Source of the DNA: an uncultured bacterium
GTDB taxonomy: Bacteria; Chlamydiota; Chlamydiia; Chlamydiales; FEN-1388
Assembly: GCA_964577935.1 (NCBI GenBank)
Contig: CAZOAJ010000007.1
Coordinates: forward strand, 20,273 to 84,272
DNA length: 64,000 bases
Reading direction: 5' to 3'
The notes under the pieces were generated by a model that worked only from the letters and a program-made list of their open reading frames with translations, was not told the origin of the DNA and searched no databases. Of the stretch, positions 31,085-32,257 are shown one piece after another. Positions within the stretch are counted from its first letter, which is position 1; each line of letters opens with the position of its first letter. A program made the position numbers and the translations under genes.

Positions 31085-32257
31085 TTATGTTTCGTTATAA
31101 CTCTTTCCGGAGAAAAACAGACTATTTCGCTCGAGAAGTTTATCAAATTCGATTGTATTGAGAGTTTTTTGTTCTTCAGGAGTAAGTCGATCTGTATTTT
31201 CTAAAAACGTCCCGCCTAAAACGCCGTTGCAGGCAATTCCTTGAGGATTATCCATTGTTATCGACAAGGTTTTTGGGAAGAGATATATATACTCATCCTT
31301 GCCATCTTGCTCTACTTTTGTATAGATCATGTAGTCCATATGATCTACCCCGGAATCTTGATTCAACGTTATAAGGTGCCCTTGAACGGGTATTATAAGT
31401 TCATCATTGTTAAGTTCGCGAGCTCCAAGGCCTGTGCAATTGAAGATAACCTCTTCTTGAAGTTCAGAAAAGGCATTTATTTTTGCAATCTCGATGGGAA
31501 TCCCTAAACGATTTACTTCAGCGTGTAGTCCTTGCATGAGTAGGCTGGTATTAATGAAATAGGTCATAAATTTTTTGTAGTTTTTATGTAGGACTCCATT
31601 GCCAAAATCAAGGGTAACGATTTCATGAGGAGGGATAAGTCCTCGTCTTTCGAGGTCTTCAACTCCTGCTTCAGTTTCTTGACTGCAGTATACGGGCATG
31701 TAACGTACGATATCATGGTTGAGATATGGATGTGTTCCATTCATGATAGAGCTGTATGTCAAAAAGGTCTTAAGGCCGATTTGATTGAGATTCTCTTGTT
31801 CTGCTTCAGAAGTTTTGATAGATACAAGCGCAAAATAGCCAGCCGCTTTCCATGAAGGAAGGTCATAAAGATCCTTTGTGGTAATTCCAGATACCGAATG
31901 ACCTCGTCGTACAAGCTCTATAGCAGCTGTTAAGCCCATATATCCAGATCCAATAACTCGAATTGGAGCTTTGGTATGCCGATTTTCTTGTTCGAAGAGC
32001 TGGATTGCCTTTTCAATCGATCCAAAAACAGTCGTTGCTCCTGAGCCTCCATGTCCATTACAGTTGATGATTGATTTATTGTGGACCCGTTCAAGTGATA
32101 TGTTGAACGATCCGTTTCGCATTGGTCGTGTACAAACAATTTTCTGAGATATTGTCTCAGGAGATATTCTAGGTGGAATAAGTTGGTCTACGGTCTCTGC
32201 ATTTAAGCAAAATATAGCCCCATGTGCCATAAGGAGGGCTTTTAATAATTTATTCAC
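31085..32257 (-). CDS. FAD-dependent oxidoreductase, D-amino-acid-oxidase-like, apparently circularly permuted, with an N-terminal signal-like segment
   Basis: Rossmann motif VIGSGYMGLTAAIEL at ~aa 100, then FNCTGLGA and GGTF blocks. The normally C-terminal RP.R...GHGG.G block sits at aa ~43-75. The hydrophobic N-terminus is MNKLLKALLMAHGAIFCLNA. Confidence 0.75.
   Translation of the reverse strand: MNKLLKALLMAHGAIFCLNAETVDQLIPPRISPETISQKIVCTRPMRNGSFNISLERVHNKSIINCNGHGGSGATTVFGSIEKAIQLFEQENRHTKAPIRVIGSGYMGLTAAIELVRRGHSVSGITTKDLYDLPSWKAAGYFALVSIKTSEAEQENLNQIGLKTFLTYSSIMNGTHPYLNHDIVRYMPVYCSQETEAGVEDLERRGLIPPHEIVTLDFGNGVLHKNYKKFMTYFINTSLLMQGLHAEVNRLGIPIEIAKINAFSELQEEVIFNCTGLGARELNNDELIIPVQGHLITLNQDSGVDHMDYMIYTKVEQDGKDEYIYLFPKTLSITMDNPQGIACNGVLGGTFLENTDRLTPEEQKTLNTIEFDKLLERNSLFFSGKSYNET

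Follow-up and report, generated by a model that had tools for sequence, protein, structure and literature searches.

A D-amino-acid-oxidase-like flavoprotein of an uncultured chlamydial bacterium appears circularly permuted and carries a signal-like N-terminus

How can a protein of the D-amino-acid oxidase type carry near its N-terminus the block of sequence with which such enzymes normally end? This question is raised by a gene in a stretch of 64,000 nucleotides (hereafter the window) from an uncultured bacterium of the Chlamydiales (FEN-1388; GenBank assembly GCA_964577935.1, contig CAZOAJ010000007.1, positions 20,273 to 84,272 of the forward strand). The gene is complete and consists of one open reading frame (ORF), which spans exactly 31085..32257 of the window on the minus strand, begins with GTG, ends with a TAA stop at 31085-31087 and encodes 390 amino acids. 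Its product had been described, in an original prediction made from the letters alone, as a flavoprotein resembling D-amino-acid oxidase (DAAO) that is circularly permuted and has a signal-like N-terminus. The coordinates and the strings quoted in that description are accurate, although the minus strand was left unstated: MNKLLKALLMAHGAIFCLNA is located at residues 1-20, KIVCTRPMRNG...GHGGSG...AIQLFEQ at 39-90, IRVIGSGYMGLTAAIELVRRGH at 99-120, FNCTGLGARELNNDELIIPVQGHLITL at 272-298, YLFPK at 325-329 and VLGGTF at 346-351, with the stop after residue 390. The gene has a GC content of 39.8% (33% at third codon positions) and resembles the neighbouring genes, as expected of native base composition. 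In the present study, we conclude that the polypeptide is almost certainly a circularly permuted chain of the DAAO or D-aspartate oxidase (DASPO) type, and that with a probability of roughly 0.7 it is a functional, circularly permuted amino-acid oxidase or dehydrogenase of that lineage, dependent on flavin adenine dinucleotide (FAD).

The permuted order proposed earlier was upheld by sequence comparison, by profile comparison and by de-permutation of the chain. The Pfam family PF01266 (DAO) matched the window protein with 60.6 bits (gathering cut-off 27.9) in two stretches that are split and out of order, residues 101-362 corresponding to positions 4-283 of the 353 in the profile and residues ~24-80 to positions 294-346. 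The N-terminal 74 residues following the signal peptide, when taken alone, matched the same positions 294-346 with E=0.0035. After the sequence had been de-permuted (residues 95-390 followed by 21-94), a single colinear match to PF01266 was obtained, from 7-356 to positions 4-346, and it runs unbroken across the artificial junction. Furthermore, a profile of the N-terminal block made from 32 sequences was compared with the PDB, and its best 17 matches were all DAAO or DASPO and always fell in the last ~65 residues of these enzymes; among them were residues 319-381 of the Rasamsonia emersonii enzyme (7ct4) at E=3.7e-12 and residues 268-333 of human DAAO at E=2.1e-8. The GHGG block thus does not come from an unrelated domain, as its profile finds the C-termini of DAAO and DASPO. 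In the direct alignment of the window protein with 7ct4, residues 40-90 correspond to 324-374, residues 99-115 to 26-42 and residues 227-329 to 161-268, and residues 237-335 align to human DAAO 141-238. A family profile of 28 sequences gave the same out-of-order pattern against solved structures with better statistics. The phmmer scores against the PDB were not raised by de-permuting the single sequence, because HMMER scores local pieces; the telling outcome of de-permutation is the single-stretch Pfam match. Overall, the RPxR/GHGG block at residues 39-90 precedes GxGxxG at 103-108, which is not the colinear DAAO/DASPO order, and the conserved LxPP of the family aligns with Pro268 of human DAAO. 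Together with the out-of-order matches, this alignment places the chain break at approximately human DAAO residue 267/268.

The protein, encoded throughout on the minus strand, can be divided into the following parts. Residues 1-20 (32198..32257) form a presequence similar to a Sec-type signal peptide, with a predicted cut after A20. It is followed by the transplanted module (residues 21-95, 31973..32197), which corresponds to ~268-338 of human DAAO according to PF01266 positions 294-346 and the block profile, and which consists of a strand with CxRPxR, a hairpin, a further strand, GHGG and a long helix. Within it, C42-T-R44-P45-M-R47 (32117..32134) was assigned by residue-level alignment to human DAAO, and the GHGG motif G68-H69-G70-G71 (32045..32056), invariant in the family, by alignment to 2du8. 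The old C- and N-termini are joined by a new linker, NRHTKAP (residues 92-98, 31964..31984), which in the AlphaFold2 model lies between helix 73-91 and strand 99-102, in a block with predicted local distance difference test (pLDDT) values of 85-94, and which is variable in homologues. The Rossmann beta-alpha-beta unit with G103-S-G105-Y-M-G108, the motif for binding the ADP part of FAD (residues 99-127, 31877..31963), matches PF01266 from position 4, is internal and not N-terminal, and also matches NAD_binding_8 and other families. The body (residues 96-390, 31088..31972) is colinear with canonical DAAO ~1-267 by PF01266 and PDB alignments, and comprises FNCTGLG at 272-278, the GHL strand, Y325-L-F-P, LGGT at 347-350 and a terminal helix at 360-383. 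As judged from these alignments, the C-terminal ~70 residues of canonical DAAO are now at the front of the chain, behind a predicted export signal.

The survey of homologues gave the same picture. Both motifs could be located in 331 of the fetched proteins; GHGG lies before GxGxxG in 330 of these, and the lone exception was an artefact of the regular expression. Since this order is shared by homologues from independent assemblies, an assembly artefact, a gene fusion or a pseudogene is excluded. A word-indexed search yielded 806 relatives at E≤0.001, the best 120 of which are full-length and 54-64% identical, except for a public copy that is 100% identical; the named ones among these 120 are Chlamydiota. 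In addition, a profile search of 1.84 billion representatives gave 1051 clusters at E<1e-10 (counted as clusters at 50% identity), 156 of them at E<1e-30; one cluster member is from Candidatus Protochlamydia phocaeensis. The best 150 of the 1051 clusters were colinear with the permuted profile, and the permuted order is kept in distant members with ~25-35% identity. A scan of species-representative genomes found 47 loci, and the records among them that name a lineage are metagenome-assembled genomes (MAGs) of Chlamydiota (Parachlamydiales, Rhabdochlamydiaceae and Simkaniaceae), but for one labelled 'uncultured Verrucomicrobiae bacterium' (L010). When the search was seeded with distant members, Candidatus Tisiphia, Rickettsia endosymbionts, Rickettsiaceae, other Alphaproteobacteria and a Bdellovibrionia MAG were found. 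The family is apparently enriched in intracellular bacteria, mostly of obligate intracellular lineages. A tandem-duplication intermediate, as would be left by the route suggested earlier, was not seen among the family members, and those with two stretches carry insertions and not duplications.

Some further observations were made on the family. Two distant paralogues of the permuted gene occur in some chlamydial genomes (L004 and L020 in CAVOJR010000001.1; L024 and L027 in CAWEXT01). A rare subfamily (P0168, P0174, P0194 and P0248) is without the signal peptide and has ~100-150 additional residues inserted after the GHL strand, ahead of the next strand. Members are labelled in databases as 'FAD-dependent oxidoreductase', 'D-amino-acid oxidase', 'dadA' or 'hypothetical', and the label 'dadA' on some entries is unsupported, the DadA score being far below its cut-off.

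The predicted structure was examined with an AlphaFold2 model built on the family alignment (pLDDT 89.6, predicted TM score 0.87), in which low confidence is confined to the presequence. Its secondary structure runs through strands 36-47, 52-58 and 61-67 and helix 73-91, and then strand 99-102, helix 106-117 and strand 122-127, an order that fits the C-terminal module of DAAO followed by the Rossmann unit. The best 33 Foldseek matches in the PDB were all DAAO or DASPO, with E values from 8e-11 to 5e-8. We predict with high confidence that the protein adopts the ordinary two-domain DAAO fold. Residue-level HMMER alignments equate R44 with Arg283 of human DAAO, which binds the substrate carboxylate, Y325 with Tyr228 (both in Y-x-x-P) and G71 with Gly313. 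The substrate Arg is present in 361 of 372 family members, and Y325, G71, G103, G105 and G108 are invariant in the 28-sequence alignment, whose mean column identity is 65%. In view of the intact GxGxxG and GHGG motifs, we infer that FAD would be bound.

Thus, the closest known enzymes are DAAO and DASPO (EC 1.4.3.3 and 1.4.3.1), represented by 7ct4, human DAAO (2du8) and human DASPO (6rkf), which are the best matches in sequence, profile and fold and have in common with the window protein GxGxxG, NCTG, the GHL-type strand, Y-x-x-P, LGGT, RPxR and GHGG. The window protein differs from them in that it is permuted, its old termini being connected through the 7-residue linker; it carries a predicted N-terminal signal peptide, whereas they carry a C-terminal peroxisomal signal; and it has Cys in place of Gly281, a different residue at the lid position Tyr224 and several other changes in the pocket. 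The identity is ~17-22% in structural alignments, and the permuted family is bacterial. Two further differences concern the chlamydial clade. Where Rossmann strand beta-2 ends, Thr127-Lys128 (Lys128 at window 31874-31876) is T-K in this clade, whereas in DAAO, DASPO and the rickettsial clade an acidic residue is found (A-D, S-D or A-E), which normally contacts the FAD ribose; cofactor binding may be slightly altered. Two residues before GHGG, Cys66 (window 32060-32062; N-C-Y-GHGG) is specific to the chlamydial clade and occurs in 136 of 372 members, whereas the rickettsial-type members and canonical DAAO have Asn at this position.

A third feature of the family is the residue two positions before the substrate Arg (C42 in the window protein), which is Cys in 323 of 372 members (87%) and Gly in 25. 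C42 aligns exactly with Gly281 of human DAAO, where canonical DAAO has Gly. As related in PMC12149734, which cites Raibekas, Fukui and Massey (2000), the human DAAO variant G281C binds 8-methylsulfonyl-FAD covalently, and this tether indicates that the Gly281/C42 position adjoins C8 of the flavin. The engineered Cys thus stands where Cys42 stands naturally, and a reactive FAD analogue is needed there. A second precedent is the MSOX family (MSOX, MTOX and PIPOX), which has 8alpha-S-cysteinyl-FAD and the same PF01266 superfamily fold as the window protein. The flavinylated Cys315 of MSOX sits two residues before an active-site strand residue, as does Cys42 in the permuted family. The de-permuted family profile aligned end to end with MSOX (1el5, the query sequence having been verified against the PDB) in a local hhalign comparison, with E=3.2e-5. 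When the MSOX C-terminus was aligned to the N-terminal-block profile with hmmalign, the GHG region alone was aligned and the Cys region was not reached. The likeness to MSOX is, however, far weaker than that to DAAO. Neither of the residues that bind the carboxylate in MSOX, Arg52 and Lys348 (GHGFK), is kept, and since this Lys is replaced in GHGGSG the window protein is by sequence not a member of the MSOX family; in addition, MSOX is not permuted and is cytoplasmic. That C42 tethers FAD covalently is consequently put forward as a tentative proposal only. For an enzyme that acts outside the cytoplasm a covalently held FAD would be fitting, which makes this an attractive hypothesis.

The N-terminus was then compared with those of the homologues. 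In the window protein, K3 and K6 are followed by ALLMAHGAIFCL and then by N-A|E, and there is no RR motif. The assignment as a signal peptide, here and below, follows heuristic criteria, namely a charged n-region, an h-region of 7-15 residues and small residues at -3/-1. The first ~20-25 residues of the homologues vary in sequence and keep this character, with 1-2 Lys or Arg, a hydrophobic core and a small-x-small site (ALEA|N, ALSA|S, GLNA|Q and CLNA|E). Of the 255 homologues whose presequence has 15 or more residues, 213 have a strong hydrophobic core, and in the 28-sequence alignment conservation starts abruptly at LxPP, the mature start. By these heuristic means, the signal-like character noticed at first is supported by the presequences that stand ahead of LxPP in the homologues. 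The absence of a twin-arginine motif was likewise confirmed, as none (S/T-R-R-x-F-L-K) is present in the window protein or in the chlamydial clade. Distant relatives, however, have clear signals of the twin-arginine translocation (Tat) type: P0365, P0376, P0380, P0381 and P0385, with the motifs TRRSFIATLA, SRREFVAKVA, NRRNFLYTIA, NRRDFITTLA and MDRRTFLQQA. The occurrence of two different export signals within one family argues that the family works outside the cytoplasm, and judging from these signals an extracytoplasmic location of the window protein is probable.

Two other ideas about the N-terminus were rejected. A lipoprotein signal, suggested by LLCS strings in homologues, was discarded because a canonical site would not have Leu at -1 and because this Cys lacks conservation; separately, the h-region is followed by a Cys in P0365 and P0381 (LAAC and LASC), a candidate lipobox. 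The second idea, that Tat is generally missing and that this accounts for the Sec-type signal, fails as well: Tat is absent in Chlamydiaceae (PMC4083426), but tatC occurs in all Rickettsiales surveyed and in the genomes of two Chlamydiae (PMC3827258).

On these grounds, the proposed course of action would be as follows. The protein would be exported across the inner membrane, as suggested by the signal peptides and by the Tat signals of some relatives, and would fold into the two-domain DAAO fold with FAD bound. An alpha-amino acid would be held through its carboxylate by R44 and Y325, and hydride would pass to flavin N5 as in DAAO; the conserved residues suggest that the products would be an imino acid and then a keto acid and ammonia. 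Stereospecificity for D-amino acids would follow from family membership. The flavin would then be re-oxidised by O2, giving H2O2, or by another acceptor. For amino-acid oxidation as such, probably of D-amino acids, we put the chances at about even from the sequence evidence.

Several points weigh against the reading of the protein as a functional permuted oxidase or dehydrogenase. No conserved neighbour gene that hints at a substrate was found at the 47 chlamydial loci and in the window, where the sole shared feature of the neighbours is ubiquitous ABC ATPase domains. No NCBIfam equivalog was matched either, with DadA (NF009074) scoring 12.7 against a cut-off of 494 and ThiO (TIGR02352) 28.9 against 250.8; these two belong to the same Pfam superfamily and catalyse a reaction of the same general type, but they are colinear and cytoplasmic or peripheral to the membrane. 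The Foldseek TM scores are only 0.45-0.59 and come from a sequential aligner, so they are no proof of spatial equivalence; such modest values are to be expected when ~70 residues of a permuted chain cannot align in order. As for the flavin tether, the hhalign pairing of C42 with MSOX Cys315 and of R44 with Tyr317 has low local confidence, and human DAAO G281C, according to the account in PMC12149734, does not self-flavinylate with ordinary FAD, which means that a Cys at the Gly281 position is insufficient for a covalent bond. With Sec-type export, FAD would have to be acquired after export, and the acquisition of FAD outside the cytoplasm is unusual. Finally, the N-terminal helix might remain uncleaved and serve to anchor the protein in the membrane.

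Among the alternatives, the one that survives best accepts a fold and chemistry like those of DAAO and proposes a physiological substrate other than a free D-amino acid, for instance glycine, N-methyl amino acids, opines or products of peptidoglycan that have a free D-centre (such as meso-diaminopimelate or a muropeptide stem). The pocket gives some reason for this: the motif alignments place Y141 at mammalian DAAO L51 and A143 at Q53, the alignment further places D321 at the lid Tyr224, K314 at H217 and Y312 at L215, and the family signature HMDYMIY lines the pocket. In addition, an extracytoplasmic site would be where the turnover products of peptidoglycan arise. The Arg/Tyr pair for the carboxylate and the GHGG backbone site are nevertheless exactly those of DAAO and DASPO, and the best sequence and structure matches are to these enzymes and not to those acting on glycine, sarcosine or opines. 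We therefore consider a different substrate possible but doubtful.

A second alternative keeps the protein at the membrane, as a dehydrogenase with an uncleaved signal-anchor that passes its electrons to quinone or the respiratory chain, like DadA or the Proteus L-amino-acid deaminase, and not as a soluble oxidase forming H2O2. Residues 2-18 form a helix of moderate confidence in the AlphaFold2 model, the Proteus L-amino-acid deaminase (5hxw) is among the structural matches with E~3e-5, and H2O2 released in the periplasm would presumably be costly for a small intracellular bacterium. The short hydrophobic cores followed by small-x-small sites are, however, typical of cleaved signals, and the relatives with Tat signals, some with a following Cys, suggest soluble or lipid-anchored periplasmic proteins. 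Furthermore, the closest solved relatives are true oxidases, while DadA reached 12.7 bits against 494. An anchored dehydrogenase is, in our opinion, unlikely.

The start of the gene bears on a third alternative, in which the enzyme is cytoplasmic and the hydrophobic N-terminus either has no targeting role or results from a mis-called start. The public annotation of the window protein (P0001, 381 amino acids) begins at Met10 and thereby drops the charged n-region (window 32230-32257); a second public gene call of 390 amino acids exists (P0389). The presequence is shorter than 15 residues in 37 homologues, 42 of the 255 longer ones are without a strong hydrophobic core, and FAD enzymes are normally cytoplasmic or exported by Tat. 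On the other hand, a GGAG site similar to a Shine-Dalgarno sequence, read from the sequence at 32263..32266 on the minus strand, stands at the ideal spacing of 5 nt from GTG, and this favours the start of the 390-residue protein over the start at M10. The signal-like presequence is found in most full-length homologues of two phyla, variable in sequence and constant in character; several relatives have unmistakable Tat signals, and truncated gene calls seem to account for many of the short presequences. A cytoplasmic enzyme thus seems very improbable. The last alternative, that the permutation is an artefact of misassembly, of the fusion of two fragments, of a pseudogene or of an ordinary DAO protein with an unrelated N-terminal domain, has only the a priori rarity of natural permutations in its favour and is of negligible probability, given the same order in the homologues and at the 47 loci of Chlamydiota MAGs, the intact frame with invariant catalytic residues, the specific homology of the N-terminal block to DAAO C-termini (E=3.7e-12) and a confident AlphaFold2 model of a single domain pair.

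To return to the permuted oxidase, its most specific form would be an exported enzyme with FAD bound to Cys42, acting in the periplasm or the inclusion space on D-amino acids or D-centres released by peptidoglycan turnover (D-Ala, D-Glu and meso-diaminopimelate). This combination we regard as distinctly unlikely. If it were true, its roles might be salvage, the guarding of a minimal peptidoglycan from foreign D-amino acids, or the removal of immunostimulatory fragments.

In the window, the permuted gene sits between a ytgABCD metal-transport operon and dnaB, and we take both neighbours to be incidental. The operon, a ytgABCD-like metal ABC transporter (26865-31033, plus strand), encodes a ZnuA-type binding protein, an ATPase and a pair of ABC-3 permeases. 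The first of the pair (28669-30105) forms a fusion with the C-terminal domain of a DtxR-type repressor (Fe_dep_repr_C), as in the YtgC-YtgR of Chlamydia, and there is a 32-nt overlap between its ORF and that of the second permease. A flavoprotein with FAD_binding_1 and NAD_binding_1 domains, similar to CysJ or an NADPH-flavin reductase, is encoded at 24148-25272 on the plus strand, at a distance of a few kb from the permuted gene. According to Pfam, the 785-residue protein at 34114-36471 (plus strand) has a eukaryote-like Ser/Thr kinase domain at residues 522-777 only, and its N-terminal ~500 residues had no Pfam match. The ORFs of 412 residues (36834-38072) and 170 residues (26010-26522), both on the minus strand, matched no Pfam family at E<=1e-5. 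Two tRNA-Ser genes with the anticodons GCT (36629-36720) and GGA (40629-40718), both on the plus strand, were the sole Rfam and ARAGORN matches in the window.

Circular permutation is rarely found in nature among two-domain flavoenzymes. In our searches of the full-text literature, we found no report of a permuted DAAO, and nothing relevant on DAAO in Chlamydiae, Rickettsia or the periplasm. It appears, then, that a large permuted family has so far gone undescribed. The type of fold is already known, and what seems to be new here is its re-threading, together with a predicted export signal and a candidate Cys for tethering the flavin. Three unusual traits are joined in this family: the permutation of the chain, predicted export signals on an enzyme with FAD (of Sec type in Chlamydiota and Rickettsiales and of Tat type elsewhere) and a Cys at the site of a designed tether; the current database labels miss all three. 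With more than 1000 sequence clusters, the family is a natural experiment on the tolerance of the DAAO fold to re-threading. A secretable and possibly covalently flavinylated DAAO scaffold could be of interest to biotechnology, and the findings are relevant to flavoenzymology as well as to the biology of the chlamydial and rickettsial cell envelope. Should the protein act on D-amino acids in the periplasm, it would bear on how these compounds and fragments of muropeptides are dealt with by intracellular bacteria whose peptidoglycan is reduced and transient.

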